From the NCBI GenBank assembly GCA_963707215.1, contig CAVPPB010000001.1, positions 800,001 through 864,000 of the forward strand: a stretch of DNA of 64,000 nt. Direction: 5' to 3'. Both the position numbers and the translations under genes were made by a program. A model generated the notes under the pieces. It did no database searches. It was not told where the DNA came from and saw nothing but the letters and a program-made list of their open reading frames with translations. Origin of the DNA: an uncultured Chloroflexia bacterium. Its GTDB lineage: Bacteria; Chloroflexota; Limnocylindria; Limnocylindrales; CSP1-4. Shown here piece after piece: positions 38,571 to 59,511 of this stretch (positions are counted from its first letter, which is position 1; each line of letters starts with the position of its first letter).

Positions 38571-38613
38571 CCCCGAATCCTACGCCCGAGGAGCGGAACG
38601 GGCCTCGGGCGGT

Positions 38614-40130: not shown

Positions 40131-40136
40131 GGCCGG

Positions 40137-40167
40137 ACCGTACACCTTCGAGTCACTTCAAGGTCAA
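40137..40167 (-). promoter_or_regulatory. MerR-type promoter with 19-bp spacer and operator dyad
   Basis: -35 TTGACC (40167-62), 19 nt, -10 TACGGT (40142-37). Dyad ACCTTcgAGT-c-ACTtcAAGGT (40144-64). Confidence 0.85.
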
Positions 40168-40357
40168 GCGCGAGCCGTCGGACCGATCCTCGCTCGGCGA
40201 GATCCTTGGATGACGACGCTGTCCGTTCGGCGGGCGACCCTTCCCTGTCGGCTCGGCCCGAGCGATGCCGTGGTCGCCCGGGTCGTCGTCGGGGTGCTGG
40301 ACGAGTCGGTTGGCCGAGTGGCTCACCCGGCAGGGCGAACGCCACCGGAGCCCGAGT

Positions 40358-40855
40358 TCAGAAGGGCGGCGCCTCGGAACCGACCTCCACGACAGTCACG
40401 GTCCTGATGCCCGCCGGCGTCTCGAAGCGGACCTCGTCCCCGGGGCCGGCCCCGAGCAGCGCACTCCCGAGGGGCGAGGCGATCGAGATCGCACCCCTGC
40501 CGGGGTCGCCTGCGCCCGGGATCACGAGCCGGAAGACGTCGATCTCGCCGTCGTCGGCGACCTTGACCTCGCGGCCGATCGCGGCCGAGGATCCGGCATC
40601 GACGATCTCGGCTGCCGCGACCGCCTCGCGCAGGGCCGCGAGCCGGCGATCGAGCGAGTCGGTGTCCCGGAGCCATTCTGCGATCGCCGCCGAGTCCGGC
40701 GTCTCGTCGGACCCACCGTCCGGCCCCACCTGCCGCGAGATGCTGGAGAGACGCCGCTCTTCCTCAGCCAGGTCCTGCCAGGCACGCTGGGTCATCGGAT
40801 ACGCCTCGACCTCCTCGATCCCGAGGCTGGCCGCGGTGGATGGCTGTCGATCCAT
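40358..40855 (-). CDS. GreA/GreB-family protein
   Basis: C-terminal G.IS.ASPLGSALLG..GDEV...TPAG. GGAGG RBS. Confidence 0.85.
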   Translation of the reverse strand: MDRQPSTAASLGIEEVEAYPMTQRAWQDLAEEERRLSSISRQVGPDGGSDETPDSAAIAEWLRDTDSLDRRLAALREAVAAAEIVDAGSSAAIGREVKVADDGEIDVFRLVIPGAGDPGRGAISIASPLGSALLGAGPGDEVRFETPAGIRTVTVVEVGSEAPPF

Positions 40856-40923
40856 CGACGGGACCTCCGTGGTTCGTCGCAGTGCCGACCAGCCCCCGGG
40901 CCGATCGGTCCCTCCGGTCTCGG

Positions 40924-41232
40924 CTACTCGGTGCCGTCGTCTGCGCCTTCGCGACGCAGCACGAGCCGGGCCCCGTCGCCGGCCTCCTCGAGGTCGAGGG
41001 TGGCCTCGCCGACCACCGCGACGACCTCCGGGGCGACATAGGCCCTGAGCCCCGCCTCCTCGGTCACGGCATCCTCGGGCCCAGGCTTCGACACGAAATC
41101 GAAGCCGAACCGGGACCGTCCACCCTGCGGGTCGCGGGGAGCGAAGAAACGGACGCCATACGAATCCGGCGCCCCGACCTCGGAACGGGCCGCGGTGAGC
41201 GCCATGGCAGCAGCTGGGGTCATCTTCAGCAT
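40924..41232 (-). CDS. HesB/IscA-like protein lacking the cluster-binding cysteines
   Basis: AGGGAGG RBS. LKMTPAA..A, GVR, P..EDAV....G.RAYV, ATLD pattern. Confidence 0.65.
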   Translation of the reverse strand: MLKMTPAAAMALTAARSEVGAPDSYGVRFFAPRDPQGGRSRFGFDFVSKPGPEDAVTEEAGLRAYVAPEVVAVVGEATLDLEEAGDGARLVLRREGADDGTE

Positions 41233-41326
41233 GAGGGGGTACCTCCCTTTCGGGTTGGACATACCACCCTGACCCCGCCCTCCCAGCCTGTCAAAGACCC
41301 GGGTCCCGGTTCGTTCGCGGCCCAGG

Positions 41327-41736
41327 TCAGCGTTGCCACAACGTTCCGCCGAGCGCGACCACCCGCTCGATGTCGGCCTCGTCGTTCCCCACGTGGGTCG
41401 AGAAGCGGATCGCCGTGCCACGAGTGCGCCCTGGTCCGACCACCTGGAAGGCGACCCCACGCGGGTAGAGCAGGTGCTTGTAGCCGGCGACGACGAGGTA
41501 GTCGACCCCGTCGATCAGGTCGTTGAGCGGCACCTGCGGGACGGCCTGGGTGCCGTCCACCAGGACCAGGGCGCCGACGGCCCGGGCCCGCGAGACCACG
41601 GCCGCCAAGTCGGCCATCCGACCAGCGCCGCCCGCATCGCCCGGACGGTCAGCTCTGGCGGCACGCCGTAGGTCGCCCAGTCGAGGTAGGCGCTTCCCGG
41701 CTGCGGCGCCAAGTGGGAGCAGGCGTCCGGCGGCAC
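41327..41736 (-). pseudogene. Internally deleted class V aminotransferase / cysteine desulfurase remnant
   Basis: N-terminal AYLDWATYG, central LVDGTQA..GYKHL and C-terminal IRFSTH..N.EADI motifs are squeezed into about 400 bp and two frames. Confidence 0.75.
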
Positions 41737-41823
41737 CGTCGCAGTCTACGGAGGGTGCGAGTGGCGCGCCGCGGGGTCGGCGCGAATGGCCGATCCGGGC
41801 GGCGATCGGGCGCCGAGGGAGGG

Positions 41824-42312
41824 TCAGGCGCCTGCGTCGACGGGCTGCCCGGCGATCCCCAGGGCGACCTCCTCGGCCCTGGCCTCGGCACCGCGCTCGA
41901 TGATGTCGATGTAGAGGTTCTCCTCGGCCAGGTGCACCTTCATCAGGGCGTACAACGAGAAGACGACGCGTCGGACGGCCAGAGCCTTGCCGAGCGAGTG
42001 ATGTGCGTCACGGACCTGCGGCCACAAGCGGGAATACTCGGCTGCCAGCTGCCGGATCCGGGCATGTTCACGGCGCAGCGGCGTCATCGAGTGCCGGTTC
42101 TGCATCAGGCGTTCGAGCTCGGGGAAGACCACCGGCTCGGCCGCGTCCATGTGCGGCAGGAGGGTCCCGTTCAGGAACTCGTCCATGTCGGCGAGGCGAG
42201 GCCGGAGCTCCTCCTCGGGCGCCGCGAGGAGCATGTCGCCGAGCTCGGGCATCAGGTCGACCGTGGCGACCATCTCGTCGTGCTGGGCGTGAGCGGCGTG
42301 CGCGGTCGTCAT
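41824..42312 (-). CDS. Hemerythrin-domain protein
   Basis: LLPHMDAAE..VFP, RREH, HLAEE.LY. Confidence 0.8.
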   Translation of the reverse strand: MTTAHAAHAQHDEMVATVDLMPELGDMLLAAPEEELRPRLADMDEFLNGTLLPHMDAAEPVVFPELERLMQNRHSMTPLRREHARIRQLAAEYSRLWPQVRDAHHSLGKALAVRRVVFSLYALMKVHLAEENLYIDIIERGAEARAEEVALGIAGQPVDAGA

Positions 42313-42460
42313 GACGACCCTCCGGTATGGCGGGCCGACGTGTTCGCTGGACCCCCGATCCCGGGAGCCGCGCGGGGACGACATCCGCAGGAGCGCGTCG
42401 GCCGATGCGCCCGCGGATGTCGGGGACGTGATAGGTCGATGGAGTCGGATCGACGGCCTG

Positions 42461-42838
42461 TCATCGGGTGGGACCGCCGGGACGGGAGGTGGTCGGTCGG
42501 TCGCCGGCGACCGCCGCGAGGCCCCCGAGTCGAGTGAGCCGTCGGATGAGGACCTCGCGCATAAGGCCGCAGGCGGACAGGATCTCGGGGTCGGTCAAGC
42601 GATAGATGACCGTTCGGCCGGCCCGATCCGCGGTGACGAGCCCGGCCGCCCGCATGGCGGCCAGGTGCTGGGAGGTCGCCGACTGGCTGAGCCCAAGCTC
42701 GCGGGCGAGGTCGGAGACGCCGATCGGCCCGCGGCCCAGGACGTGGATCAAGCGAAGGCGGTGGCCGCTGGCCAGGGTGCGGAGGATCGAGGCCTGGATC
42801 GCATCGATGTCGTCGACGGAGCCGAACATGGACCCCAC
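42461..42838 (-). CDS. ArsR/SmtB-family regulator
   Basis: RLRLI, SQSATSQHLAAMR.AGLV, R.G..V.Y.L. Confidence 0.88.
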   Translation of the reverse strand: MGSMFGSVDDIDAIQASILRTLASGHRLRLIHVLGRGPIGVSDLARELGLSQSATSQHLAAMRAAGLVTADRAGRTVIYRLTDPEILSACGLMREVLIRRLTRLGGLAAVAGDRPTTSRPGGPTR

Positions 42839-42976
42839 CAGAGTGCGCTATCGGGCGCTACCTGCGCTCAGTCCTCATATTCGCCCTGGGTGCATGTGTC
42901 CCGACGGGCCGTCGGTCACGAACGGCAGCCCGTTCGGCCCGTTCGTCGGCCGGCGCCGGCGGCAGATGACGGGGCG

Positions 42977-43630
42977 TCAGACGCTGGCACCCACCAGTGC
43001 CTGGGCGACCCCGACCGCGCCCACCGCGTCCTCGCCGTAGCCATCCGCTCCGATCTCGTCGGCCCAGGCCTTGGTCACCGGCGCGCCGCCGACCATGACC
43101 TTGACGTTCGGCCGAAGACCGGCCGAGGCGAGCGCCTCGACGACGGTCCGCTGGCCGGTCATCGTGGTCGTGAGCAGGGCCGACACGCCGACCAGGTCGG
43201 CGCCGACCTCCTGGGCCTTCTCGACGAACCGCTCCGGCGAGACGTCGACGCCGAGGTCGTGGACCTCGAAGCCGTTCGCGGTGAGCATCATCCCGACGAG
43301 GTTCTTGCCGATCTCGTGGATGTCGCCCTGGACGGTCCCGATGACGACCCGCCCCGCGATCTTGCGCTGGGAGGCCCGGGCCATCATCTCCGGCTCGAGG
43401 ACACCGATCGCCGTCTGCATCGCCCGGGCGGCCAGCATCATGTCGGGCAGGAACAGGTCGCCGCAGCGGAACTGCTCGCCGACGTGCCGGATCCCGGGGA
43501 CGAAGGCCTCGTCGATGGCGACGAGCGGATCGATGCCCTCGGCGAGGGCCTGCTCTGCCAGCTTGCCGGCCGCGGTCGCATCGCCGTCGATGACGCTCTG
43601 GCGCATCGCGTCGAAGAGCTCCTGGGTCAT
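42977..43630 (-). CDS. Methyltransferase corrinoid protein (MttC/MtbC-like)
   Basis: FLPDMMLAA and the B12 motif GDIHEIGKNLV...SALLTTTM...GGAP. Confidence 0.95.
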   Translation of the reverse strand: MTQELFDAMRQSVIDGDATAAGKLAEQALAEGIDPLVAIDEAFVPGIRHVGEQFRCGDLFLPDMMLAARAMQTAIGVLEPEMMARASQRKIAGRVVIGTVQGDIHEIGKNLVGMMLTANGFEVHDLGVDVSPERFVEKAQEVGADLVGVSALLTTTMTGQRTVVEALASAGLRPNVKVMVGGAPVTKAWADEIGADGYGEDAVGAVGVAQALVGASV

Positions 43631-43697
43631 GGATGCTGCCTCCTGGGCTGGGGCCGGGCACGACTGGCTCGGCCGAGATGACCTGACTGGATCCGGT

Positions 43698-45188
43698 TCA
43701 TGCCATGGCGTCCGCCGGGCTGCGCGCCGACGCATCGGCGGTGGTGGCCCGGCCGAGGGCGAGGTCGGCCTCGGCGAGGACCCGGTCGAGCTCAGCCTGG
43801 ACATCATCGGGCAGTGGGTCGACGAGCGGCGCCCCGACGATCTCGCGGACCCGGTCCTGGGCCCGGTCGTACATCGACGGCGAGCCGGCCCCGAGCCAGG
43901 CCTCGCGCGACTGCCGGCCAAAGATCGTCGGCAGGAAGAACTCGCCACTCCGGGCGGCCCGGCGGGTCGTCTCGCTGAACAGGAAGTCGCCGCCGGGTCC
44001 GACCGCGGCGATCTCGTCGAACAGGCCGGCCTCGGGCCCGGTGGCCATCCCCGCCACGAGGCGCTCGCACATCCGGGCGAGCTCGTTGTCCACGAGGATC
44101 TGCTCCAGGACGAGCGTCTGGTCGCCATCGATCTCGCCGAACCCGACGACGATCGACGCCCCGGCCGACATCGGCGGCAGCATCGTCATCAGCTTGTCGA
44201 CGATCGCCTCGGCGCCGACGTCGTGGGCGTCGGACGCGCAGCCCGACGCGGTCGTCGGCAGGCCGTAGGAGCGACCCATCGTCGTGAGCACGCCCGACTG
44301 GATGCCGGCCTCCGGTGTCCCGCCGAGGAAGCCGCCGGTCCGGAAGTCCATCGAGGCGACGCAGCTGCTGTACATGAGCGGCCGACCAGGATGGGCGAGC
44401 TGGAAGACGACGATCGACGAGAGGGCCTCGGCGTTGGCCAGGCTGACGTTGGCGAACAGGCCGGCCGGGCCCGTGGTGCCGGCGATCGGCATCGGCATGA
44501 TCATCACCGGGACGTCGAGGGCGCCCAGGTCCAGGTAGGCGTCGAGCATCGGCCCGTCGTGCGTCAGCGGGGCGACCGGGCAGTAGATGACCGATGCCGG
44601 ATGACGCTCTCGGACCGCGGGCTCGCCGCCGAACACGACCCGCAGGACCTCGGCCAGGAAGGGCGCCTGCTCGCGGGTGTGGAGCTCGTGCTGGCCGTGC
44701 TTGGCGCAGGCCCGCAGCATCGTCGCGAACTCGTGGAGCGGCCGCGAGGCGCTCGGCATGTCCGAGGCGGCGACCGGCGGCCAGGCCAGGACGCCCATGT
44801 CGGCGGTGGCGAAGATCCGGCAGCCCAGCTCGATGTCGCGCCGGGTGCCGTAGCGACGCTCGCCGGTCTCGAAGTCGCGGGCGAAGGCGGCCGTGCCATC
44901 AAGCCCGAACCGGGTGCCCGGGGACGGCAGGGGGTAGTCGTGCTCGGGATCACGGGCTCCCAGGACGAACGAGCCGGGGGTCGAGGCCAGCGCCGATTCC
45001 ACGAGCGAGCGAGGGATCCGGGCGACCCCGGTCGCCCGGTCGACCTCCGCGCCGGCGTCCTCGAGGAGCGGCAGCGCCAGGTCACCGTGGTAGCGGACCC
45101 CGACCTCGGCCAGGATCCGCAGGCTCTGCTCGTGGATCCGGTCCCGGTCCGTGTCCGCCAGGAAGGTTGCCTCGTACCGCATCGTCAT
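43698..45188 (-). CDS. MttB-superfamily methyltransferase, non-pyrrolysine (4th in operon)
   Basis: IHEQSL.IL..VG, NAEALS, P.MY...MDFRTG, EQILVDNE, VGPGGDFL. Confidence 0.9.
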   Translation of the reverse strand: MTMRYEATFLADTDRDRIHEQSLRILAEVGVRYHGDLALPLLEDAGAEVDRATGVARIPRSLVESALASTPGSFVLGARDPEHDYPLPSPGTRFGLDGTAAFARDFETGERRYGTRRDIELGCRIFATADMGVLAWPPVAASDMPSASRPLHEFATMLRACAKHGQHELHTREQAPFLAEVLRVVFGGEPAVRERHPASVIYCPVAPLTHDGPMLDAYLDLGALDVPVMIMPMPIAGTTGPAGLFANVSLANAEALSSIVVFQLAHPGRPLMYSSCVASMDFRTGGFLGGTPEAGIQSGVLTTMGRSYGLPTTASGCASDAHDVGAEAIVDKLMTMLPPMSAGASIVVGFGEIDGDQTLVLEQILVDNELARMCERLVAGMATGPEAGLFDEIAAVGPGGDFLFSETTRRAARSGEFFLPTIFGRQSREAWLGAGSPSMYDRAQDRVREIVGAPLVDPLPDDVQAELDRVLAEADLALGRATTADASARSPADAMA

Positions 45189-46636
45189 CCGACCCCGCCC
45201 GGGGTCGCTCCGTTCCGTGCTGCCTGCTCGATCCGTTCGAGCTCACGGGTCGTCGCCTCGTCCAGCCGCAGCGGCTCGTGGCCGGCGATCGTCGCGTCGA
45301 CGATCGACCGCGCCTCCTCGAGCAGCTCCGGTCGGCCGGCGGCGTCCCAGCGCTCGTACGTGTCGTGGACGCCCATCGTGTCGATGGACCACTCGCCGCG
45401 GTGGACCGCGTCCCGCGTGGCGGTCCGGGCGATGAAGTCGCCGCCGGGCCCGACATCGGCGATGGCGGCCTCGACGGGCTCGCCGGCGAGGTCCTCGATC
45501 CCCCGGTGGAGCCGTTCGCAGCGCCGGAAGACCTCGAGGTCGATGACCAGCTGCTCGAGGCTCAGGACGGTCGACCCGCTGAGGCAGCCCGGCCCCACGA
45601 GGATGTCGGGCCGGGCCAGCGCCGGCAGGACCCAGTCGGTGGCCCGCTCGTAGGCCGCCTGGATGCCCGGCACGTGATGGTCGCTGCTGCCGGTCGAGGC
45701 CATGACCGGCAGCCCGTAGCCCCGGGCGACCTCGACGGCGGCCGCGCCCAGGAGGCCGTGCTCCACGGCCCCGCCAGCCCAGCGCCCGGTCCGTGGCTCC
45801 ATGACCGCCAGCGCCGGGGCGTAGATGAACGGCGTCCCGGGCGCCGCGGCCTGGACCAGGCAGAGCATCGCCAGGATCTCGGCATTGCCGAGGACCACCG
45901 TCGAGAGCAGCCCCACCGGCGCGGTGAGGCCCATGACCGGCATGGGCATGACGGCGATCGGCAGGCCCCAGTCGAGGGTCGCCAGGCAGGCGTCCGTGTC
46001 GGGGCCCTCGAGGACCAGCGGCGAGAGCGGGCAGACGAGGAACGAGAAGGGATGCTGGCGACGGACCGCCTCGCGCCCACCGAAGACGGTGCCCAGCACC
46101 TCGAGGAGCCAGCCGACGTCGGCCGGATCGGTCGTCCCGTCCTGGACGTGCTTCGAGAAGAGCCCCAGCGCCTGGGTCCAGCGCCGGACGGCGACCCCCG
46201 GCCCGACCTCGCCGCGGCCGACCTCCACGGCCTCCCAGTAGACGCCGACGGCGTCGGTCGCGTCGATGAGCCGGGTGGCCCGCTCCCAGTCGTCGTTCGT
46301 CGCGGTCCGCCGGAGACCGGTCTCGGGGTCGATGACGTGGATCGCCTGGCCGTCGATGCAGAGGGTGCAGCCGCCCGCGTTCATCGCCAGCGACCAGCCG
46401 GGCCGCCGGCCACCCAGCGAGAAACGGCGGGGGGCCGCAGCGAGCGAGCGCTCGACCAGCTCGGGCGGGAAGCGGACGACCCGGGTCGCCTCGTCGACCG
46501 GGGCGCCGGCCTCGGCCAGGATCGCCCTGGCCCGCGCCGAATCGACCCGCAGGCCGGTCGTCCCGAGGACGGCCAGGGTCCGCTCGTGGACGGCGCTCCG
46601 GTCCTCGTCCGAGAGGACCTGGACGCGGGTCCTCAC
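45185..46636 (-). CDS. MttB-superfamily methyltransferase, non-pyrrolysine (3rd in operon)
   Basis: VHERTL.VL..G, SPL, GNAEILA, PG.P.IY, EQLVID.E, VGPGGDF. Confidence 0.9.
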   Translation of the reverse strand: MRTRVQVLSDEDRSAVHERTLAVLGTTGLRVDSARARAILAEAGAPVDEATRVVRFPPELVERSLAAAPRRFSLGGRRPGWSLAMNAGGCTLCIDGQAIHVIDPETGLRRTATNDDWERATRLIDATDAVGVYWEAVEVGRGEVGPGVAVRRWTQALGLFSKHVQDGTTDPADVGWLLEVLGTVFGGREAVRRQHPFSFLVCPLSPLVLEGPDTDACLATLDWGLPIAVMPMPVMGLTAPVGLLSTVVLGNAEILAMLCLVQAAAPGTPFIYAPALAVMEPRTGRWAGGAVEHGLLGAAAVEVARGYGLPVMASTGSSDHHVPGIQAAYERATDWVLPALARPDILVGPGCLSGSTVLSLEQLVIDLEVFRRCERLHRGIEDLAGEPVEAAIADVGPGGDFIARTATRDAVHRGEWSIDTMGVHDTYERWDAAGRPELLEEARSIVDATIAGHEPLRLDEATTRELERIEQAARNGATPGGVG

Positions 46637-48180
46637 CGTCGGGCGCTCCCGTGGGCGGTCCGGGTCGCCGGCTCGCCGCCGCCCAGCTCGCGATCGGCCG
46701 CCGCGACGATCCGCTCGAGCTCGGTCGCCACCGCGTCCTCGAGGGGCTCCGGCCAGTGCTCGGCCAGGATCCGCTCGACGGAATGGCGGGCCACCTCGAC
46801 CGGGTCGACCGCGCTCCCGTCCACGGTGGTCCGACCGGTCAGCAGCGAGAAGGGCAGCTGGCGCAGGCCGTCCCGGGTGCTCGGCTCGTACAGGTAGTGA
46901 CCGCGGGGGCCGACCGACCGGATGACCTCGATGGCCAGCGCCTCGGGCGACGTGTCGAGTCCGGCCAGATCGACCCGGACCCGCTCGTGGAGGTCGGCGT
47001 CGAGGACCAGCTGCTCGGGGTAGAGCAGGGTGCAGCCCTCCAGCAGGCCCATCCCCGAGCCGGTCTCGGCACCCAGCAGGGAGCAGAGCGTCAGGCCGAC
47101 GGCGGCCTCGGCGGGGACCTGCCAGCCGGGCACCATCGCGTCGGTGCCGAAGACGCCGGCCAGCGTCGGCACTCCCCAGGCATGGGCGAGCTCGACCCCG
47201 GCCGCGTAGGCGACGTCCCCGGCGATGGCGGTGGCCAGGAAGCCGCCGGTCCGTGGGTCCATGACCCCGGGCATGAGGGAGTGGAAGACGGGGGCGCCCG
47301 GGTGGACGAGCTGGACGAGGACGAGCGCGGCGACGATCTCGGCGTCGCCCTGGACCACGGTCCCCGCGATCGAGGCCGGTCCGGTGGAGCCGGCGTTGGC
47401 CATCGACATGAAGCCGACCGGCAGCCCGGCCTCGGCCATGACCAGCGCCCCCTCGAGGCCCTCGGCGTCCTGGGCCAGCGGGGCGATGGCGCAGATGAGG
47501 GCGGACAGCGGCGGCCGGGTCCGCATCGTGGCCTCGTCGCCGGCCAGGACCCGGGCCATCTCGACGGCGTAGCGGGCCGTGGGCTCGCCCATGACCGTCT
47601 CGGTCTGGACGTGCTTCACGGTGCCGGCGTACGACGCCAGGAGCTCGTGGAGCGGGGCCGTCGCCGGATGGTCCTGGGCGCTGACGATGGGCCAGTAGAA
47701 GCCGACCGCCGGCAGGGCGTCGGCGACGCGGGCCATGTCGGCGACGTCCCGGGTCAGCGAGGCCCGCCGCTCGCGGGTATCCGGGTCGATGGTGGCGATG
47801 CCGCAGCCGTCGGTGGCGACGTACAGGGCCGTCCCGTCGAGGACGGCGTCATGGGCCGGGGTCCGGGCGCCCATCGTGTAGTGGCGCGGCGCCCGGGCCA
47901 TGGCCGCCTCGACGAGATCGGGCGGGATGCGGACGACCTGGGTCGCGTCGTCGACCTCCGCCCCATGCTCCCGGAACAGCTCCCGGCACTTCGCCGATGG
48001 GACGTGGACGCCGATCGTGGCCAGGATCTCCAGGGTCCCCGCTCGCAGGTCGGCGAGCTGGCCGTCGTCGAGGACCCGCAGCCGGTAGGCCGGCCGGATC
48101 GGCGCCAGGGGCGGCGTCGCGCTGGGGGAGACGGACGACGCGCCGGGGGAAGCGCCCGACGCCCCGGGGGCTCGGGTCAT
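46633..48180 (-). CDS. MttB-superfamily methyltransferase, non-pyrrolysine (2nd in operon)
   Basis: TDGCG, KHVQ, APL.QD, AEIVA, MDPRTG, PEQLVLD, VGPRGHYL. Confidence 0.9.
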   Translation of the reverse strand: MTRAPGASGASPGASSVSPSATPPLAPIRPAYRLRVLDDGQLADLRAGTLEILATIGVHVPSAKCRELFREHGAEVDDATQVVRIPPDLVEAAMARAPRHYTMGARTPAHDAVLDGTALYVATDGCGIATIDPDTRERRASLTRDVADMARVADALPAVGFYWPIVSAQDHPATAPLHELLASYAGTVKHVQTETVMGEPTARYAVEMARVLAGDEATMRTRPPLSALICAIAPLAQDAEGLEGALVMAEAGLPVGFMSMANAGSTGPASIAGTVVQGDAEIVAALVLVQLVHPGAPVFHSLMPGVMDPRTGGFLATAIAGDVAYAAGVELAHAWGVPTLAGVFGTDAMVPGWQVPAEAAVGLTLCSLLGAETGSGMGLLEGCTLLYPEQLVLDADLHERVRVDLAGLDTSPEALAIEVIRSVGPRGHYLYEPSTRDGLRQLPFSLLTGRTTVDGSAVDPVEVARHSVERILAEHWPEPLEDAVATELERIVAAADRELGGGEPATRTAHGSARR

Positions 48181-49634
48181 CCGCGAGCCTCCTCGTCGGC
48201 GGCCGCCAGGATCCGGGTCAGCTCGGCCTGCTGGGCCGGCTCGAGCGGCTCCGGATGATGGTTGGCCCGGATCCACTCGACCCGCTCGCGGGCGACCTCG
48301 ATGGGATCCCGGTAGCCGGTCCCCTCACCGAGCTCGTGGGTGAGCGCCCGGGTCATGGCCGTCCGCATGTGGGTGCGGGTGTGCGGCTCGTACAGGTAGT
48401 GGCCGCCGGGTCCGACCGCCGCGATGACGTCCACGGCCAGCGTCTCGTCGTCGACCTCGGCCGCCATCAGCGCGTAGCGGGCCCGCTGGTAGATGTCGTC
48501 GTCGAGGACGATCGCCTCCGGGTAGAGCAGCGTGTACGTCCGGTCGAGACCCAGGCCGGTGACGATCTCCGGGCTGGTCAGGCCGGCCAGGAACGGGTCG
48601 AGGGCCACCTCGACGCCCGCCTGCCAGGTCCCGGCCTCCTTCGAGTCCGTCCCGAAGCAGGCCGCCATCGACGGCAGGCCCCAGTGGTGGGCCATCTCGA
48701 CCGGGGCGTAGCGGACCCGGTTGTCGAGCGCGTAGCCGACGTAGCCGCCGGTCCGCGGGTCCGCCCAGGCCTTCATGATCGAGTGGAAGACCGGCGTCCC
48801 GGGATAGGCCAGCTGGAGCAGGACGATCGCGCTGATGACCTCCGCGTCGCCGACGACCAGCGAGCCCGCCGACGTGGCCGGAGAGGTCGTCCCCATCGTC
48901 GGCATGGCCAGGAACCCGACGGGGATGCCGGCCTCGGCGAAGACGAGCGACGCCTCGATGCCGGCCTCGTCCTGGACGAGCGGGGCGATGGAGCAGATCA
49001 GGTCGGAGAAGACGGGGCGCTCGCGCAGCGCCTCGCGGCTGCCGGCGATGACGGTCGCCATCTCGACGGCGCGACGGGCCTGCGTCTCGCCCATGACCAT
49101 GCCCTGGAAGTGCTTGACCGTGTTGTTGAAGGCCGCGTCGATCTCGTGGAGCTGGGAGGTCCGGCCGTGGTCCTGGGCGCTCACCGTCGGCCACATGAAG
49201 CCGATCGACGGCAGGTAGTCGGCGATCCGGGCGATCTGGGCGACGTCGGCCTTGGTCGAGGGGCGTTCCTTGCGGGTGTCCCAGTCGATCGTCGCCACGC
49301 CGCACCCATCGGTCGTGAAGTAGCTGACCCCGTCCTGCAGGTGGAGGTCGTAGGCCGGGTCGCGGGCCGCCATCGTGAAGTAGCGCGGCGCCGAGGCAAG
49401 GGCCCGGCGGACCAGGTCCCTGGGGAGGCGGACGACCTGGGACTCGCGGTCCACCTGGGCGCCGTGGTCGGCCAGGATGGCCAGGGCCTTCTCCGACGGG
49501 AAGCGGACGCCGACCCGCTCGAGCACCTCCAGGGTGGCGTCCTGGAGACGGTCGAGCTGCTCGTCGGCGAGGAAGCGCACCCGGTAGTCCGAGCGGATGG
49601 GCTGCAGCGGCGGCCGGGCGACGGCGACGGTCAT
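48177..49634 (-). CDS. MttB-superfamily methyltransferase, non-pyrrolysine (1st in operon)
   Basis: TDGCG, KHFQ, APLVQD, AEVIS, DPRTG, TDSK, VGPGGHYL. Confidence 0.9.
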   Translation of the reverse strand: MTVAVARPPLQPIRSDYRVRFLADEQLDRLQDATLEVLERVGVRFPSEKALAILADHGAQVDRESQVVRLPRDLVRRALASAPRYFTMAARDPAYDLHLQDGVSYFTTDGCGVATIDWDTRKERPSTKADVAQIARIADYLPSIGFMWPTVSAQDHGRTSQLHEIDAAFNNTVKHFQGMVMGETQARRAVEMATVIAGSREALRERPVFSDLICSIAPLVQDEAGIEASLVFAEAGIPVGFLAMPTMGTTSPATSAGSLVVGDAEVISAIVLLQLAYPGTPVFHSIMKAWADPRTGGYVGYALDNRVRYAPVEMAHHWGLPSMAACFGTDSKEAGTWQAGVEVALDPFLAGLTSPEIVTGLGLDRTYTLLYPEAIVLDDDIYQRARYALMAAEVDDETLAVDVIAAVGPGGHYLYEPHTRTHMRTAMTRALTHELGEGTGYRDPIEVARERVEWIRANHHPEPLEPAQQAELTRILAAADEEARG

Positions 49635-49677
49635 GGTCGGCTCCTTCCGATGTGGGGGCTCGCTGGCGTGGTCCGGG

Positions 49678-50496
49678 TCATGGGCGCTCCGTCTCCGGGG
49701 CCGGCGCGCCGCGGGACCGGCGGCGGGCGCTGACCCGGAGGGAGACGAGGATCGCGATCGCGGTCGTCACGACGATGATCGTCGAGATCGCGTTGATCTC
49801 CGGCGTCACCCCGAAACGGATCCGTGAGTAGATGTAGAGCGGTAGCGTGGACGACCCGACGCCGGCGTTGAACGAGGTGATGATCAGGTCGTCGAACGAG
49901 AGGGCGAACGAGATGAGGGCCCCGGCGGCCACGGCCGGGGCGATGAGCGGCAGGGTCACGTGGAGGAACGCCTGCCGGGCCGACGCCCCCAGGTCGCGGG
50001 CAGCCTCCTCCATCCTGGGATCGAGTGACACGGCCCGGGCCCGAACGATGATCGCCACGTACGAGATCGAGAAGGCGATGTGGGCGATGGCGATCTGGAG
50101 CATCGAGCCGTTCGCCGAGAACAGCAGGGCGAAGAACAGCAGCAGGCTGATGCCCATGACCACCTCGGGGGTCACCATCGGCAGCAGGATCAGGGTGTCC
50201 GACGCGGTGGCGGCCCGGCCCGACCGGAGGCGCGCGAGGCCCAGCCCGAGCAGGGTCCCGATGGCTGTCGTCACGACGACCGAGATGAAGGCGACCTGGA
50301 GCGACACGCCCAGGGCCGCCAGCAGCGCATCGTTGCCGAACAGCTCCGGGTACCACTTCAGGGTGAAGCCGCGCCAGATGAAGTTCCGCTTGCTGTCGTT
50401 GAAGCTGAAGATGATCAGGACGACGATCGGGGCGAACAGGAACGCGTAGACAGCCAGGCCGTAGAGCGTGAGCCAGCGGTTCCGCTCGCGGCGCAT
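49678..50496 (-). CDS. potC: Polyamine-type ABC permease
   Basis: FSFN, GFTLKWY, EEAARDLGA, LSFDD, TLPLYIYS, PEINAIS. Confidence 0.9.
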   Translation of the reverse strand: MRRERNRWLTLYGLAVYAFLFAPIVVLIIFSFNDSKRNFIWRGFTLKWYPELFGNDALLAALGVSLQVAFISVVVTTAIGTLLGLGLARLRSGRAATASDTLILLPMVTPEVVMGISLLLFFALLFSANGSMLQIAIAHIAFSISYVAIIVRARAVSLDPRMEEAARDLGASARQAFLHVTLPLIAPAVAAGALISFALSFDDLIITSFNAGVGSSTLPLYIYSRIRFGVTPEINAISTIIVVTTAIAILVSLRVSARRRSRGAPAPETERP

Positions 50497-51341
50497 CAGC
50501 CGATGACCTCGCGGCGCAGGATCCGCAGACCGCCGACGGTCGCCAGGATCGTCATGACGATGAGCAGGAAGCCCAGGGCGGCGCCGAACGGCCAGTCACG
50601 GGCCTGCAGGAAGAGCGTCTGGACCACCTTGGCGATCGTCGTGGTCTGGGCACCGCCCAGCAGGTCGGGCGTCACGAAATCGCCCATGGCCGGGATGAAC
50701 GTCAGCAGGGCCGCCGCGATGACCCCGGGCATGGTCAGCGGCAGGGTCACGTGCAGGAAGGCCGCCCGGCCGCTCGCGTAGAGGTCCCGGGCGGCCTGGG
50801 CCAGGGCCGGGTCCAGGCGATCGATCGAGACGTACAGGGGCAGGATGGCGAACGGCAGGAAGCCGTAGGTCATCCCCATGATCACCGCCAGGTCCGTGTT
50901 CAGGAGCTGGACGGGCTCGGTGAAGCCGATGGCCCCGAGGATGCCGTTCACCACGCCGTTGTCACGGAGCAGGATCATCCAGGCGTAGGTCCGGATCACC
51001 CAGCTGGTCCAGAACGGCAGCATCACCAGGACCAGCAGCAGGGCCTTGCGGCGACCGCCGTAGCGGCTGATCCAGTAGGCGACCGGATAGGCGATGGCGA
51101 TCGAGAAGACGGTCGTCGCCACCGCGTACTTGAACGAGTTGGCGACCGTCGGCAGGAAGCCGGGCTCCAGGGCCCGGACGTAGTTGTGGAAGCCGAGGGG
51201 CGAGAAGAGGACCCCGCCGTACTGGTCGCGGGTGCCCAGGCTGACGACGAAGATGATCGCCAGGGGCACGGCGAAGAAGATCAGCAGCCAGCCGAGCCCG
51301 GGGACGAGCAGGATCGCCTCCCGGGCTCGCTCGCGCTTCAT
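50496..51341 (-). CDS. potB: Polyamine-type ABC permease
   Basis: LPFWTS..IRTYAW, LPF.ILPLY, AARDL, FIPAMGDF.TPDLLGG, RDWPFGAA. Confidence 0.9.
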   Translation of the reverse strand: MKRERAREAILLVPGLGWLLIFFAVPLAIIFVVSLGTRDQYGGVLFSPLGFHNYVRALEPGFLPTVANSFKYAVATTVFSIAIAYPVAYWISRYGGRRKALLLVLVMLPFWTSWVIRTYAWMILLRDNGVVNGILGAIGFTEPVQLLNTDLAVIMGMTYGFLPFAILPLYVSIDRLDPALAQAARDLYASGRAAFLHVTLPLTMPGVIAAALLTFIPAMGDFVTPDLLGGAQTTTIAKVVQTLFLQARDWPFGAALGFLLIVMTILATVGGLRILRREVIG

Positions 51342-51371
51342 CGCGATCGCCGCGCGCTCTTGGCCCCTCGC

Positions 51372-52583
51372 TCAGGCGCCGGCGCGAAGCTTCGTGTAGC
51401 GCTCGCTGTACTTCACCTCGTCCTCGCCGAGGTCGAGGATCTCCTGGAGCTTCTCGACGGCCGACTGGTCGGGGTTCACCGTCGGATCCTCGAGGATGGC
51501 CGGGTCGATGAACTCCTTGGCGGCCTCGTTCGGCCCCATGTAGCCGATGTAGTTCGTGTTCGCCGCGGCCACCTCGGCGTCGAGCATGTAGTTGATGAAC
51601 AGGTTGGCTGCGATGGGGTGCTGCGCGTTGGCCAGCAGGACCATGGTGTCCGAGCCGCGGACGCCACCCTCCTCGGGGATGTAGTAGACGACGGTGTCGC
51701 GCTCGACCTGGACCTGGTAGACGTCGGCGCCCCAGGCGTGCATCACCCAGACGTCGCCGGTCGAGAGCACCCCGATGTCGTCCGTGGTGTAGGTCCGCAG
51801 CAGCGGCTTCTGCTCCTCGAGCAGCGCGAGGGCCTCGTCGAGCTCGCCATCGTCGGTGGTGTTGATGTCGTAGCCGAGGCGGATGAGCGCCGCCGCGAAG
51901 ACCTCGCGGACGTCGTCCAGCATCGCCATCTTGCCGGCCCAGCGCTCGTCCCAGAGGGCCGCCCAGGAGGTCAGCTCCTCGTCGATCTGGGCCGTGTCGT
52001 AGGCGACCCCGGTGGTCCACCACATGTAGGGCATGGAGTGCTCGTTGCCCGGGTCGTAGCCCGGATCCGCCCACTCGGCGCCCAGGTTGACGGCGTTCGG
52101 GATGAGGCTCAGGTCGAGCGGCTGGATCAGGCCCTGCTCGAGGAAGCCCTTGATGTAGGTCGAGGTCGGGAAGGTCACGTCGTAGCCGCTGTTGCCGCTG
52201 CTGATCTTGGCGGTCATCGTCTCGGCGCTGTCGAAGAAGTCGTAGGTGACCTTGACGCCGTACTCGTCCTCGAACCCGGCGATCGTCTCCTCACCGATGT
52301 AGTCGGCCCAGTTGTAGACGAACAGCTCGGCCTCGGGCTCCGGCGCGGAGCTCGGCGCGGTCGAGGCGCCCGCGCTGGGAGCGGCCTGGCTGGGCTCCGG
52401 CGTCGCGCCCGACGAGCAGGCGGCGAGGGCCGGGCCGATGGCGACCGTGGCCCCGGCGGCCGCCATGCCGCGGAGCACCGTCCGTCGGCTCATCCGGCGG
52501 GGCCCCGGCAGCAGCAGTCGTCGCTCCGGGACGATCAGCTGGCGCTGCCCGTCCGGGTCCTGGCTCGTCCTGCGGGTGGTCAT
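51372..52583 (-). CDS. potD: Polyamine-type ABC substrate-binding lipoprotein (Tat-like signal)
   Basis: SRRTVL..LAAC, YNWADYI, FDS.E, YD...PT.Y, PYMWWTTG, AWGAD, IPEEG. Confidence 0.88.
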   Translation of the reverse strand: MTTRRTSQDPDGQRQLIVPERRLLLPGPRRMSRRTVLRGMAAAGATVAIGPALAACSSGATPEPSQAAPSAGASTAPSSAPEPEAELFVYNWADYIGEETIAGFEDEYGVKVTYDFFDSAETMTAKISSGNSGYDVTFPTSTYIKGFLEQGLIQPLDLSLIPNAVNLGAEWADPGYDPGNEHSMPYMWWTTGVAYDTAQIDEELTSWAALWDERWAGKMAMLDDVREVFAAALIRLGYDINTTDDGELDEALALLEEQKPLLRTYTTDDIGVLSTGDVWVMHAWGADVYQVQVERDTVVYYIPEEGGVRGSDTMVLLANAQHPIAANLFINYMLDAEVAAANTNYIGYMGPNEAAKEFIDPAILEDPTVNPDQSAVEKLQEILDLGEDEVKYSERYTKLRAGA

Positions 52584-53758
52584 GGTCCTGCCTCCTCCCG
52601 GCCCCGCGACCGCGCCAGGACGAGCGCGTTCGCCGGGCTCCAGCCGATCCGGACCCGATCGCCGGCCGACCATCGCGGCGCCGATCGGGGGACGACCACG
52701 CTGAGTGCGAGGCCGCCCTCGGTCCGGATCTGGTGACTCACCGACGTCCCGAGGTACGCCGATTGCCCGATACGACCGAGCAGCGCTGGAGCGCCTGTCG
52801 CTCCCTCGCTCCCGGTCCCGTCATCGCCATCGAGCTCGACGGCCTCCGGCCGGATCGAGACATCGACGGCATCGCCGACCCGGACGCCGGTCGAGGCGGC
52901 CAGGCAGCGCTCGCCGCTCGACAGCCGGACGAGGACCGTCTCGCCGTCGACCGCTTCGACCGCTCCTTCGAGCAGGTTCGTCGTGCCGATGAAGTCGGCG
53001 ACGAACCGGGTGGCGGGCCGGTCGTAGAGCTCCTCCGGCGCGCCGAGCTGCTCGACCCGACCGCGGTCCATGACGGCGATCCGGTCGGACAGCGCGAGGG
53101 CCTCCTCCTGGTCATGGGTCACGTAGATGAACGTGATCCCGACCTCGAGCTGGACCCGCTTGAGCTCGACCTGGAGCTGGCGACGCAGCTTGAGGTCGAG
53201 CGCCCCGAGGGGCTCGTCGAGGAGCAGGACGGTCGGCTCGTTGACCAGCGCTCGCGCAAGGGCGACCCGCTGCTGCTGGCCGCCGGAGAGCTGATCGGGG
53301 CGCCGCTTGTCGAAACCGGGCAACCGGACGAGTTCGAGTGCCCGGCCCACCCGTCGCTTCACCTCCGGGTCGGGGACGCTCCGCCGGCGTAGCCCGAACG
53401 CCACGTTGTCGAAGACGCAGAGGTGGGGGAAGAGGGCGTAATTCTGGAAGACCATGTTGACCGGGCGGCGCTCCGGCGGCTCGGTCGTGATATCCGAGCC
53501 CCGCAGCTCGATCCTGCCGCCCGTCGGCAGCTCGAACCCGCCGATCATCCGGAGGGTCGTCGTCTTGCCGCAGCCCGAGGGACCCAGGAGCGAGAAGAAC
53601 TCGCCGGACCCGATCTCGAGCGAGATCCCGTCCACCGCGATGACGTCACCGAACCGCTTCGTCAGCTCGACGAGGCGGACCTCCGATCCGGGCGGATCGC
53701 TGGCCGGGGTGAGGGCTCCCGCCTCGACCCCTGGGACGCCGGGTGCCGCGGACGACAT
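52580..53758 (-). CDS. potA: Polyamine-type ABC ATPase
   Basis: GPSGCGKTT, FQNYALFPH, LSGGQQQR, DEPLGALD, TOBE domain. Confidence 0.93.
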   Translation of the reverse strand: MSSAAPGVPGVEAGALTPASDPPGSEVRLVELTKRFGDVIAVDGISLEIGSGEFFSLLGPSGCGKTTTLRMIGGFELPTGGRIELRGSDITTEPPERRPVNMVFQNYALFPHLCVFDNVAFGLRRRSVPDPEVKRRVGRALELVRLPGFDKRRPDQLSGGQQQRVALARALVNEPTVLLLDEPLGALDLKLRRQLQVELKRVQLEVGITFIYVTHDQEEALALSDRIAVMDRGRVEQLGAPEELYDRPATRFVADFIGTTNLLEGAVEAVDGETVLVRLSSGERCLAASTGVRVGDAVDVSIRPEAVELDGDDGTGSEGATGAPALLGRIGQSAYLGTSVSHQIRTEGGLALSVVVPRSAPRWSAGDRVRIGWSPANALVLARSRGREEAGP

Positions 53759-53977: not shown

Positions 53978-54817
53978 TCAGATCGGGCGCGGCGCGTTCC
54001 AGGGGATCCGGCCCACGACTGGATCCGCGAGCGCCGGCGGCTGCTGCCGGACCGGCACCGGCTGGATGGACACGAACCGGCCGTCCCAGGCCATCGGCAG
54101 CGGGTCGTACCTCCATGGCGTGAAGAAGCGCCGGAGCTGGTCGAGCGTCAGCTGCGTGTTCGGCCGCATGTCGTAGCCGTTGCGGCTCTGGAGGCCCCAG
54201 AGCGGCCCGACGACCCGGACGCTGGTCACCGTGAAGTCATCCGTCGTCGCCGGGTCGGCGGTGGCCGAGAACCCGGTCAGGATCCAGGCGTGGCCGCCGT
54301 CCGCCACGGTCAGGCCGACCGGGAGCCCGGTGCGCCGGATCCGCTCGACCGCAAGGCGGATCGCCCCGTCGAACGTCGCGCTGACCGTGAGCCGGTAGCG
54401 CTCGTCGACGAAGCGGCGGAGCCCGGCCTCCCAGCCCTGGGGATCCACCCCGGCCGAGACCGGCAGGTCGTACCGGTTGCGGCCGCGCATCCACTCGAAG
54501 TAGCGGGCCTGGCCGGCTCGTCCATGGTCGACCTCGTCGTGGACGATGTTGCGGATGATCTGGACGTCGGCGGCGGTGCACCAGAGCCAGGTCTGCTGGG
54601 TGCTGAAGACGCCGTCACGGTAGAGGTCGACCGAGCCGGTCCAGGCCGATGGCCCGGCGGCGAGCGCCACCCGCGGAGCGACGGCGGGGGCCGCTCCGAT
54701 GACGAGCAGCACTGCCACGAGGAGCGCGGCCAGGTGCCGGGGCCCTGACCGCGGGCCGCCGGCTCGGACCACCGACAGGCGTCGAGCCCCGAACGTCGTC
54801 GCCGGCTGGGTCCTCAT
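53978..54817 (-). CDS. Secreted protein with papain/C39-like Cys-His motifs
   Basis: Signal peptide, Q..W.WC.AA, GHAWIL.GF. Confidence 0.7.
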   Translation of the reverse strand: MRTQPATTFGARRLSVVRAGGPRSGPRHLAALLVAVLLVIGAAPAVAPRVALAAGPSAWTGSVDLYRDGVFSTQQTWLWCTAADVQIIRNIVHDEVDHGRAGQARYFEWMRGRNRYDLPVSAGVDPQGWEAGLRRFVDERYRLTVSATFDGAIRLAVERIRRTGLPVGLTVADGGHAWILTGFSATADPATTDDFTVTSVRVVGPLWGLQSRNGYDMRPNTQLTLDQLRRFFTPWRYDPLPMAWDGRFVSIQPVPVRQQPPALADPVVGRIPWNAPRPI

Positions 54818-54833
54818 CGCCGATCCTCGGTGC

Positions 54834-55548
54834 TCAGGTCCGGTGGAGCGGGATCCGGGCCCCGGTCACCGTGCCAGCCGCCGGCGAGCAGAGGTAGAGG
54901 ACGGCTGCGGCGATCTCGTCGGGGGTCGTCCAGCCCGCGGTCCTGGCGCTGGGCTCGCGATCGCGGACCCCGTCGGCGTCGATCGCCCGGACCCGCAGGA
55001 CGTTGACCGTCACGCCGGTCGCAGCCGTCTCCCTGGCCAGGGCTGCCGATCATCGCTTCCTCAGCCGCCTTCCCGACGGTGTACGCGGCCGTTCGGGCCG
55101 GTGTCTCCGTTACGACCGGCGATGAGACCGCCACGATCCGGCCGAACCCGGCCTCGACCATCACCGGGACAACGGTCCGGGCCACGTTGACGGTCGTCCA
55201 GAGGTGCTGGTCGAGCATCGACCGGAACGCGTCGTCGGGGGTCTCGCTGGCCGGGACCCCGCCCGTCCAGCCCCCGACGAGGTGGGCCAGCACGTCGATC
55301 CGGCCGAACCGCTCCAGTACGGCGCCGACCGCATCACGCGCCTGGGCCGCGTCTCGAAGGTCCGCCCCGACCGCCAGCCAGCCGTCGCGATCCAGACCGA
55401 GCTCGTGGGCCACCGCCTCGACCCGCTCCAGCGTCGAGCCGATGAGCGCGACCCTTGCTCCCGCAGCGGCCAGGGCGGCGACGACCGCTCGCCCGGCAGG
55501 CCCGGCGGCGCCGGTCACCAGCGCCACCCGCTCGGAGAGATCGACCAT
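54834..55548 (-). CDS. SDR oxidoreductase (frameshift near 55048)
   Basis: ALVTGAAG..G, YTVGKAA catalytic motif, and C-terminal YLCS....VTGARIP in a shifted frame. Confidence 0.85.
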
Positions 55549-56271: not shown

Positions 56272-56733
56272 ATGGCGACCATCCCCGCGACCGACCAGGG
56301 CGGCGGCGTCCCCCGCCGACGGTTCCTGCGCTTCCTGCTCGGCTTCTCCGTGGTCTCGACCCTGGCCATGATCGCGGCCCCGGTCGTGGGCTTCCTCCTG
56401 CCCCCCAAGACCACCGGCGGTGGGGGCGGCGGCAAGATCCTGGTCGGGACGATCGCCGACATCCCGCTGGGCCAGGGCAAGGTCGTGCCCGTGGGCAGCA
56501 GCCCCGCGATCATCATCAACACGGACCAGGGGGTGAAGGGCTTCTCGGCCATCTGCACCCACCTGGGCTGCATCGTCGCCTGGGACCAGGGCGCCGCCAA
56601 CATCGTCTGCCCCTGCCATGACGGCCGCTTCAACGCCACGTCGGGGGCCGTCGTCTCGGGTCCTCCGCCGTCCGGCCTGCCCCCGGTCGAGGTGTCGGTC
56701 GAGGGCGAAGAGATCTACGTCGTGAGCGCTTGA
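56272..56733 (+). CDS. Rieske [2Fe-2S] subunit of a Rieske/cytochrome b complex
   Basis: RRRFL Tat/TM, CTHLGC, CPCHDGRF, GPPP. Confidence 0.93.
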   Translation: MATIPATDQGGGVPRRRFLRFLLGFSVVSTLAMIAAPVVGFLLPPKTTGGGGGGKILVGTIADIPLGQGKVVPVGSSPAIIINTDQGVKGFSAICTHLGCIVAWDQGAANIVCPCHDGRFNATSGAVVSGPPPSGLPPVEVSVEGEEIYVVSA

Positions 56734-57827: not shown

Positions 57828-57840
57828 GGTCCTGAAGACG

Positions 57841-59313: not shown

Positions 59314-59511
59314 GCCCGGGGTCGGCCGCGGAGCGACCCTCGGGTCGCCACCGGGTCGGCCGGTCCGGACCGCAACGCAGGCGTCCCCGAAGGCGAGCGA
59401 CGGTCCCGTCGCGGACCGGCGGATCGGCCTGTGCGTCGGGGCCGCACGGTCCCGCGGGGGGCGGGCCGGACGGCACTGTCCGACATATTCGCGGATACGC
59501 ATGGTCGGGGC

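Follow-up and report, generated by a model that had tools for sequence, protein, structure and literature searches.

What is a polyamine-type ATP-binding cassette (ABC) importer doing in one operon with four methyltransferases of the MttB superfamily and a corrinoid protein? The question is raised by nine co-directional genes on the minus strand, at 42977–53758, of a 64,000-nucleotide stretch of DNA (hereafter the window) from an uncultured Chloroflexia bacterium of sediment (positions 800,001 to 864,000 of contig CAVPPB010000001.1, assembly GCA_963707215.1). The gene order is potA, a potD-like gene, potB, potC, mttB1, mttB2, mttB3, mttB4 and the corrinoid protein gene. The answer that we favor, with moderate confidence, is that the operon imports a methylated amine that is cationic and non-acidic and removes its N-methyl groups by cobalamin-dependent chemistry.

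In the proposed pathway, the PotD-like lipoprotein would capture a methylated ammonium compound without an acidic group, and PotABC would import it. MttB1 through MttB4 (B1–B4) would then act as substrate:corrinoid methyltransferases (MT1) that transfer methyl groups to the one corrinoid protein of the operon in its Co(I) state, and a pterin-binding methyltransferase encoded elsewhere, for which AcsE-like and MetH proteins are candidates, would hand the methyl group to tetrahydrofolate. The methyl group would next be oxidized, or condensed to acetyl-CoA, by the folate and acetyl-CoA synthase/carbon monoxide dehydrogenase (ACS/CODH) pathway of the genome, and a RamA-like activase, also encoded elsewhere, would re-reduce the corrinoid protein. 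What each step does and in which direction, to what chemical class the substrate belongs and how the four enzymes share the work are inferred from the gene content and operon structure, the protein families, the conservation of the methyltransferase cassette, the absence of acid-binding residues from its members, the remodeled PotD pocket and the downstream one-carbon genes.

All nine genes are open under translation table 11, with no internal stop and no in-frame TAG in any of them; the co-directional operon, its coordinates and the lack of TAG codons given in the first-pass annotation are thus borne out by the translations, the gene junctions and the Pfam and NCBIfam matches. Five junctions are overlaps of the ATGA, GTGA or TGATG type: ATGA joins the potA stop to the start of the substrate-binding protein (SBP) gene, TGATG lies at potB/potC, and the MttB1/MttB2, MttB2/MttB3 and MttB3/MttB4 overlaps are ATGA, GTGA and ATGA, respectively. 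A 43 nt gap with the ribosome-binding site GGAAGGAG separates potC from mttB1, and 67 nt separate mttB4 from the corrinoid protein gene, whose start at 43630 is preceded by AGGAGG. The probable starts of the SBP (52583), potC (50496), MttB2 (48180), MttB3 (46636) and MttB4 (45188) genes were deduced from the junctions. The potA frame is open upstream to the first GTG at 53806, its likely start being the ATG at 53758 (codon 17), and the mttB2 frame is open up to 48276, with the ATG at 48180 as its likely start. The window is 72% GC, and real genes were told from antisense open reading frames (ORFs) by codon-position GC together with domain searches; long opposite-strand ORFs, which are usual in DNA of this composition, were rejected as genes on the ground that their codon-position GC is not coding-like. 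There is no Rfam match at the gathering threshold anywhere in the window, and a promoter and terminator scan gave nothing exceeding the shuffled expectation.

Four MttB paralogs

The four methyltransferases are MttB1 (48177–49634, 485 aa; Pfam MTTB 216.8 bits; MtgB structure 9yce, E = 1e-54), MttB2 (46633–48180; 207.4 bits; pyrrolysine MttB structure 7xcl, E = 1.3e-54), MttB3 (45185–46636, 483 aa with a GTG start; 188.3 bits; 7xcm, E = 7.2e-52) and MttB4 (43698–45188, 496 aa; 257.5 bits; 9yce, E = 3.9e-53), all on the minus strand and 483–547 aa long. In each, PF06253 (cut-off 25 bits) covers about positions 25–495 of the 500 in the profile, which places them in the superfamily. MttB1 and MttB2 are 52% identical to one another and the other pairs 32–35%. 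In a search of solved structures, all four are about 30% identical to both Desulfitobacterium hafniense MtgB and pyrrolysine MttB (E from 1e-35 to 1e-55) and so about equidistant from the two. Their scores on TIGR02369, the equivalog model for pyrrolysine MttB, are 308.7–354.2 (MttB1 has the 354.2) against a cut-off of 525, and in the NCBIfam profile search they match no MtgB-specific model. The column of the pyrrolysine residue (Pyl334) is occupied by Gly, Gly, Ser and Ala in B1 to B4 and no UAG is present, so they are not pyrrolysine MttBs. Recoding of stops as selenocysteine or pyrrolysine was considered and rejected, since the stops within tblastn matches to orthologs sit at the match ends, beyond the true stop, with one exception. 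This is an MttB1 ortholog (L070:10001–11428) with a TAG at codon 193 amid an otherwise conserved stretch; recoding, a sequencing error or decay to a pseudogene might explain it.

MttB1 has many relatives. In public metagenomes, 5010 of 8000 scored candidates match it at E ≤ 0.001, with an identity of 69% or more in each of the best 120; one protein, 94% identical, bears the source name 'Candidatus Limnocylindrales bacterium'. Among species-representative genomes a scan gave 288 relatives, the best 80 of which yielded 78 loci with flanks of up to 10 kb on each side; apart from one 4-kb contig, the records are titled as Chloroflexota lineages. When paralog types are assigned by tblastn at ≥45% identity to the respective window protein, all four occur together in 49 of the 78 loci (45 of 64 among loci of at least 15 kb), three types in 16 (B1+B3+B4 in 13 and B1+B2+B3 in 3), and one or two types in 13, many of them on short contigs. 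A FastTree phylogeny of 265 sequences resolves four clades that hold 88 of 89, 47 of 47, 62 of 62 and 61 of 63 members of the B1 to B4 types, with support of 0.90 (the MttB1 clade), 0.995, 1.0 and 1.0; the two B4 outliers are 32–33% matches mis-assigned by the best-hit rule. Since the four ortholog clades are this clean, the duplications are older than the dispersal of the cassette among Limnocylindria-like and Anaerolineae lineages. Within the class to which the window belongs, a B4 ortholog (E ≤ 1e-100) is present in 8 of 201 sampled genomes, all of them in the family of the window (seven of 60 others) and scattered over its genera. The four MttBs are old, distinct, non-pyrrolysine paralogs, and they form an ancient set that has been kept together. 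Most likely, therefore, they would divide a single substrate family among them by methylation state or by N-site, and their retention as a set fits joint action on that family, in keeping with the first-pass annotation.

Joint action could also be physical. The MttBs might be subunits of hetero-oligomers (B1/B2 and B3/B4 dimers, for example) that catalyze one or two reactions and in which some members are mainly structural, an arrangement that is doubtful in our view but would be compatible with a cationic amine as substrate. The 4-nt start/stop overlaps between B1 and B2, B2 and B3, and B3 and B4 favor it, as do the co-conservation of the set across loci and the adjacency of B3 and B4, even if inverted, where they lie apart from B1–B2 (L037, L043, L049). 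There is also a structural precedent, in that each C-terminal extension of the MtgB dimer is described as lining the active-site cavity of its partner (PMC13080624). However, 13 of the 78 loci lack B2, several duplicate B1, B1–B2 sit between B3 and B4 in many Anaerolineae loci, and every clade has conserved pocket residues of its own, as expected of four working active sites.

These pocket residues bear directly on the substrate. MtgB holds glycine betaine by way of Y97, F356, R312 and H348, and according to the main text of the report on its structure R312 is conserved in every characterized non-pyrrolysine MttB, all of which act on acidic quaternary amines (PMC13080624). The MtgB positions were mapped through printed alignments and then onto a MAFFT alignment of the 265 sequences (the chain numbering of 9yce is two below that of the paper). 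In 257 orthologs of B1–B4, the R312 site and the two columns on either side of it never hold Arg or Lys, and the H348 region never holds His. By contrast, all seven MtgB-like MttBs from sister genomes, which score 600–755 bits on the Pfam MTTB model and served as a positive control, show Tyr, Arg and His in the same columns, so the absence of Arg and His from B1–B4 is not an alignment artifact. Together with the identity of about 30%, this sets the four apart from MtgB; for MtcB, MtpB, MtyB and MthB, the conservation of R312 is taken from the general statement in the main text of PMC13080624, and the four may likewise differ from them at this site. The remaining four MttBs of the same genome likewise have no equivalent of the R312 arginine.

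The MtgB glycine betaine set is absent from window proteins B1 and B4 alike: the former has Cys, Met, Gly and Tyr at the Y97, R312, Pyl334 and F356 columns and a gap at H348, and the latter has T, T, G and D at Y97, R312, H348 and F356. Over the clades, B1 proteins have Cys at the Y97 site (87/88), Leu or Met at the R312 site and Tyr at the F356 site (85/88); B2 proteins have Cys (40/46), Leu (46/46) and Cys (46/46) at the same three sites; B3 proteins have Glu at the R312 site in 41 of 61 cases, with Met in the window's own B3; and B4 proteins have Thr at the Y97 site (59/62) and Asp at the F356 site (59/62).

Corrinoid protein and proposed fate of the methyl groups

The last gene of the operon (42977–43630, minus strand) encodes a 217-aa MtgC-type corrinoid protein with a cap domain (B12-binding_2, 73 bits) and a Rossmann B12-binding domain (107 bits), together with a D-x-H-x-x-G motif, as expected of a cognate partner of MttB enzymes. 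It passes TIGR02370, the general model for cognate corrinoid proteins (223.4, cut-off 215.3); its best NCBIfam match is the MtgC model NF047995, where it stays below the cut-off (233.1 vs 310). It is the sole strongly MtgC-like protein in the assembly, and the fetched flanks include a corrinoid protein gene in 17 of the 78 related loci. A weaker ORF with the same cap-plus-Rossmann layout, at C3:425913–426803 (B12-binding_2 and B12-binding at 53 and 58 bits, with an E-x-H-x-x-G motif), might encode another corrinoid protein or else a regulator that binds B12.

Besides the four in the operon, the assembly holds four further MTTB matches, one on contig C1 (within 484000–499000, L107) and three clustered on C2 (129315–134700, L106), none of which has a corrinoid protein gene nearby. 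The one on C1, MttB5, lies near genes for an NCS1 permease, a class-III aminotransferase and an amidohydrolase and a partial homocysteine S-methyltransferase ORF.

The genome contains genes for steps that would follow methyl transfer to the corrinoid protein. A complete ACS/CODH cluster at C3:520990–529699 (L105) encodes AcsB, the large and small subunits of the corrinoid iron-sulfur protein, the activator RACo, a CooC-like protein, a DUF3786 protein and AcsE; a full-length metH has the gene for methylenetetrahydrofolate reductase (MTHFR) beside it, and folD and fhs are adjacent. With the ACS/CODH and folate genes both present, the genome therefore has a complete folate/Wood-Ljungdahl route for methyl groups. 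An apparent RamA and MtgA pair on contig C3 was considered as a dedicated partner of the operon and rejected, because the two are the RACo and AcsE of the ACS/CODH cluster; a separate RamA-like gene lies elsewhere in the genome, beside an MTHFR-like match. Pterin_bind proteins that could pass the methyl group on are the AcsE-like protein, MetH and one further match.

Neighboring genes in related loci differ with the type of importer. Opp-type loci (see below), which are those of Anaerolineae, have an MtgA-like Pterin_bind gene beside the cassette in 9 of the 78 and a DDAH/ADI-like gene in 10, and in Pot-type loci the neighbors include SelA (15/78), SelD (17/78), a DAO-family FAD oxidoreductase (11/78) and a molybdopterin oxidoreductase (8/78), which fit one-carbon oxidation. 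SelA, SelB and SelD genes adjoin or lie inside the pot-mttB clusters of L037, L043, L049, L057 and other Pot-type loci. The molybdopterin oxidoreductase ORF in these loci is without the first ~98 profile positions, and it might, as a guess, be a selenoprotein formate dehydrogenase.

A quite different use of the methyl groups would be methionine synthesis, with the system working mainly as a split methionine synthase like Ruegeria pomeroyi MtgBCD and not in catabolism. A dual role of an MtgBCD-type system has been shown in aerobic bacteria (PMC12478193), and the homocysteine S-methyltransferase fragment near MttB5 could be taken in the same sense. But the genome already has a full-length MetH with its neighboring MTHFR, domain searches found no homocysteine methyltransferase gene in or near the operon, and the linkage of related loci to selenocysteine machinery and a possible formate dehydrogenase points to one-carbon oxidation, all of which makes a mainly biosynthetic role extremely improbable.

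Importer and substrate

The importer has four components on the minus strand: a PotA-like ATPase (52580–53758; ABC_tran 123.9 bits and TOBE_2 51.3 bits in Pfam), a substrate-binding lipoprotein of the PotD/PotF family (51372–52583; SBP_bac_8 95.5 bits; PotD structure 1pot, E = 1.1e-53) and the PotB-like (50496–51341; BPD_transp_1; 8y5f_B, E = 9.9e-53) and PotC-like (49678–50496; BPD_transp_1; 8y5f_C, E = 7.5e-53) permeases. PotA passes the polyamine PotA subfamily model TIGR01187 (361.1 bits, cut-off 355.6), and the equivalog scores are all below their cut-offs (PotA 388.6 vs 482, PotD 192.6 vs 582, PotB 227.4 vs 348 and PotC 236.1 vs 326). The SBP carries a twin-arginine (TAT) signal and an LAAC lipobox, and the PotD/PotF motifs singled out in the first-pass annotation are present in its translation as NWADY, FDSAE and AWGAD.

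Escherichia coli PotD binds its ligand with the acidic residues E36, D168, E171 and D257 and the aromatic residues W34, Y37, W229 and W255, of which W255 is reported to be critical (PMC11414716). We compared these positions in 27 SBPs, namely 24 that are linked to mttB genes (those of the window, G001, G018 and the 21 of 26 Pot-type loci with >80% query cover) and three unlinked orthologs. D168, E171 and D257 are kept in 27 of 27 and position 36 is Asp or Glu in 26, whereas W255 is replaced by Gly, and F254 by Arg or Lys, in every one. The window SBP itself keeps all four acidic residues (with Asp at position 36), three of the four aromatic ones (W34, Y37 and W229, but not W255) and Y293, and differs at Y85 (Thr), Q327 (Ile) and in the motif R-G-S-D that replaces F254-W255-M256-D257. 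In the permeases, by hand mapping of the alignments, the PotB-like protein keeps F222 and D226 and has V for Y223 and Q for K241, and the PotC-like protein keeps Y219 and has R for K223. The pocket is thus remodeled just where PotD clamps spermidine. Its retained acidic residues point even so to a cationic ligand, plausibly with two or more positive centers.

The linkage of pot and mttB genes recurs, which supports the first-pass annotation in this respect: a Pot-type importer (two or more of its four genes at ≥55% identity) adjoins the cassette in 26 of the 78 loci with an MttB1 ortholog, as well as in G001 and G018. The same transporter clade is tied to demethylation in another way. Four sister genera carry an orthologous pot operon (SBP 52–58% identical) with no mttB gene in the fetched 20-kb stretch around it. 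In all four, one or two GcvT-family genes are convergent to the pot operon (best NCBIfam match the dimethylsulfoniopropionate (DMSP) demethylase DmdA, 321–335 bits vs a cut-off of 410), and in three of the four so is a Rieske oxygenase (best NCBIfam match the glycine betaine monooxygenase GbcA, 170–211 bits vs a cut-off of 670). That one importer clade is coupled to either kind of demethylase supports an imported methyl-bearing onium compound that loses more than one methyl group; these matches do not name the compound, because their scores are below the curated cut-offs. In the genome of the window, a 55%-identical ortholog of the GbcA-like Rieske oxygenase lies at C1:676336–679297 and adjoins the same beta-CASP gene as in the sister genomes, with neither GcvT-like genes nor a pot operon there.

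Several points weigh against a cationic methylated amine that is imported and demethylated by this operon. No gene for RamA or for a methylcorrinoid:tetrahydrofolate methyltransferase (MT2) lies within it, no RamA homolog was found in the fetched flanks of 84 related loci (up to 10 kb on each side), and the assembly (3.26 Mb in 5 contigs) is 84.8% complete. The MttB pocket mapping was made from sequence at about 30% identity and not from a structure, and the Arg or Lys that is conserved directly before the Gly of the SBP pocket could bind an anionic group and would then fit a zwitterion. SBP orthologs with the same pocket occur without an adjacent cassette, as in the sister genera. Finally, the type of importer varies. 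An Opp/Dpp-type importer (at least two of three genes), made up of an SBP_bac_5 protein of about 565–600 aa and OppB- and OppC-like permeases by Pfam, is found in 41 of the 78 loci, and neither type in 11, of which 7 are at least 15 kb long. The Pot type is that of Limnocylindria-like loci (MttB1 mostly ≥70% identical) and the Opp type that of Anaerolineae (62–68%), so that the partnership of the polyamine-type pump with the cassette is specific to a lineage and not intrinsic. In the PDB, the Anaerolineae Opp-type binding protein matches only distant peptide and nickel binders (best E = 1.3e-25) and is uninformative on the ligand. The first-pass annotation had proposed an N-methylated diamine or polyamine taken up by a polyamine-type importer. 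The importer type stands, with its recurrence in the Pot-type loci; the polyamine substrate fares less well, given the Opp/Dpp loci, those with no importer and the lack of W255, and a methylated di- or polyamine is a plausible candidate that in our estimate is probably not the substrate.

The change of importer with lineage, the loci that have none and the SBP orthologs that lack an adjacent mttB gene might also mean that importer and cassette are no more than neighbors, the Pot system taking up ordinary polyamines and the MttBs using unrelated intracellular or diffusible methylamines. This is very unlikely in view of the tight operon (only 43 nt lie between potC and mttB1), the repeated pot-mttB adjacency, the replacement of the spermidine-critical W255 in 27 of 27 SBPs when two other PotD paralogs of the same genome keep it, and the presence of other demethylases beside those SBP orthologs that have no mttB neighbor. 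An ABC importer of one type or the other adjoins the cassette in 67 of the 78 loci.

A more serious competitor, if still a rather unlikely one, is that the substrate is a zwitterion of the usual kind, a betaine or a choline derivative (glycine betaine, proline betaine, carnitine, gamma-butyrobetaine or phosphocholine), and that the PotD-like and Opp-like binding proteins simply evolved to bind it; the operon would then be an ordinary system of the MtgB/MtpB type. Sinorhizobium has an Opp-like importer, Prb, that takes up proline betaine, which gives this view a precedent. The GbcA-like and DmdA-like genes beside the sister transporters, the basic residue before the Gly that replaces W255 and the MtgC affinity of the corrinoid protein all agree with it, and according to the sequencing-run listing the operon DNA occurs in estuary and sediment metagenomes. 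Against a betaine stand the lack of R312 and H348 equivalents in all 257 orthologs, when MtgB-like proteins of sister genomes have them; the placement of B1–B4 below the TIGR02369 cut-off and outside every MtgB-specific model; the four acidic ligand residues that the SBP keeps; and the distance of the GbcA and DmdA matches from their curated cut-offs.

Neighboring genes, known systems and significance

Just downstream of the operon lies a gene for an ArsR-family winged-helix regulator (42461–42847, minus strand; HTH_5 49.6 bits), which is a possible candidate for regulating it; its ORF family is present in only 4 of the 78 related loci. An apparent arsenic-type cluster (37359–42847) abuts the operon on this side and comprises the ArsR gene, a hemerythrin-domain ORF (41824–42594), a MerR-type helix-turn-helix domain fused to a low-molecular-weight phosphatase/ArsC-like domain (39291–40157) and an ArsA ATPase (37359–38579). 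Just upstream of potA, a 295-aa minus-strand ORF (53978–54865) has coding-like codon-position GC; searches of Pfam and NCBIfam gave no match for it, nor did tblastn against six related loci. Farther on are a cytochrome b gene (56622–57827), a 496-aa multiheme cytochrome c (57823–59313), a GAF histidine kinase (59314–61317) and a LuxR-type response regulator (61169–61981). The sequencing-run listing gave no RNA run carrying the operon DNA.

The closest parallel is the MtgB-MtgC-MtgA system of D. hafniense (PDB 2qne, 9yce; PMC13080624), in which, as here, a non-pyrrolysine MttB-type MT1 is encoded next to an MtgC-type corrinoid protein; homology to MtgB extends over the full length of all four MttBs (E from 1e-35 to 1e-54). 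Unlike that system, which has one MttB, the operon has four paralogs, all of which lack the equivalents of Y97, R312 and H348, and it has a PotABCD-type ABC importer and no MtgA gene. In Eubacterium limosum, MtpB, MtcB, MtyB and MthB share MtqC and MtqA, so that several MT1 enzymes feed one corrinoid protein as they would here (PMC8604678, PMC13080624), and the methyl groups likewise go to tetrahydrofolate and the Wood-Ljungdahl pathway. The E. limosum paralogs are, however, described as scattered, each induced by its own acidic substrate, and as keeping R312 (PMC13080624, text), whereas the four considered here form one co-conserved operon without that Arg. Methanosarcina barkeri MttB/MttC (PDB 7xcl) belongs to the same family, with about 30% of residues identical along the whole protein, and has a cognate corrinoid protein; it differs in its UAG-encoded pyrrolysine, which has no counterpart in the window proteins.

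On the transport side, the operon has the four-component architecture of E. coli PotD-PotABC (PDB 1pot, 8y5f–8y5i; PMC11414716), from which it departs in its potA-potD-potB-potC order and in having a TAT-exported lipoprotein as SBP, as well as in PotD, PotB and PotC equivalog scores that are far below the cut-offs. GbcA-like and DmdA/GcvT-like demethylases, which are absent from the window, belong to unrelated families with unrelated chemistry (oxygen- and folate-dependent, respectively). Their occurrence in the place of the MttB cassette beside the sister importer clade in four related genera suggests that the same kind of methylated substrate is imported there.

Annotations of mttB are common in Anaerolineae and Limnocylindria (PMC11264602). 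A literature search on pot-mttB and four-MttB systems found no paper describing such an operon or a four-paralog MttB cassette, so the statement in the first-pass annotation that no such pathway had been described holds within that search. The boldest version of the proposal, a first corrinoid-dependent full N-demethylation of methylated di- or polyamines or another purely cationic amine, with MttBs specialized by methyl step or N-site, is possible but improbable.

The four-gene cassette spans two classes of Chloroflexota, and for MttB1 alone the close relatives in public metagenomes number in the thousands. The two types of importer, with the Rieske and GcvT neighborhood, provide a defined group of proteins with which to look for the ligand. 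If the substrate is a cationic methylated amine, the pathway would be widespread in Chloroflexota of soil, freshwater and sediment, and a source of methyl groups could be named for the abundant uncultured soil and sediment members that have a Wood-Ljungdahl pathway. Such an amine would also bring non-pyrrolysine MttB enzymes their first class of non-acidic substrates and would widen the chemistry of the superfamily.

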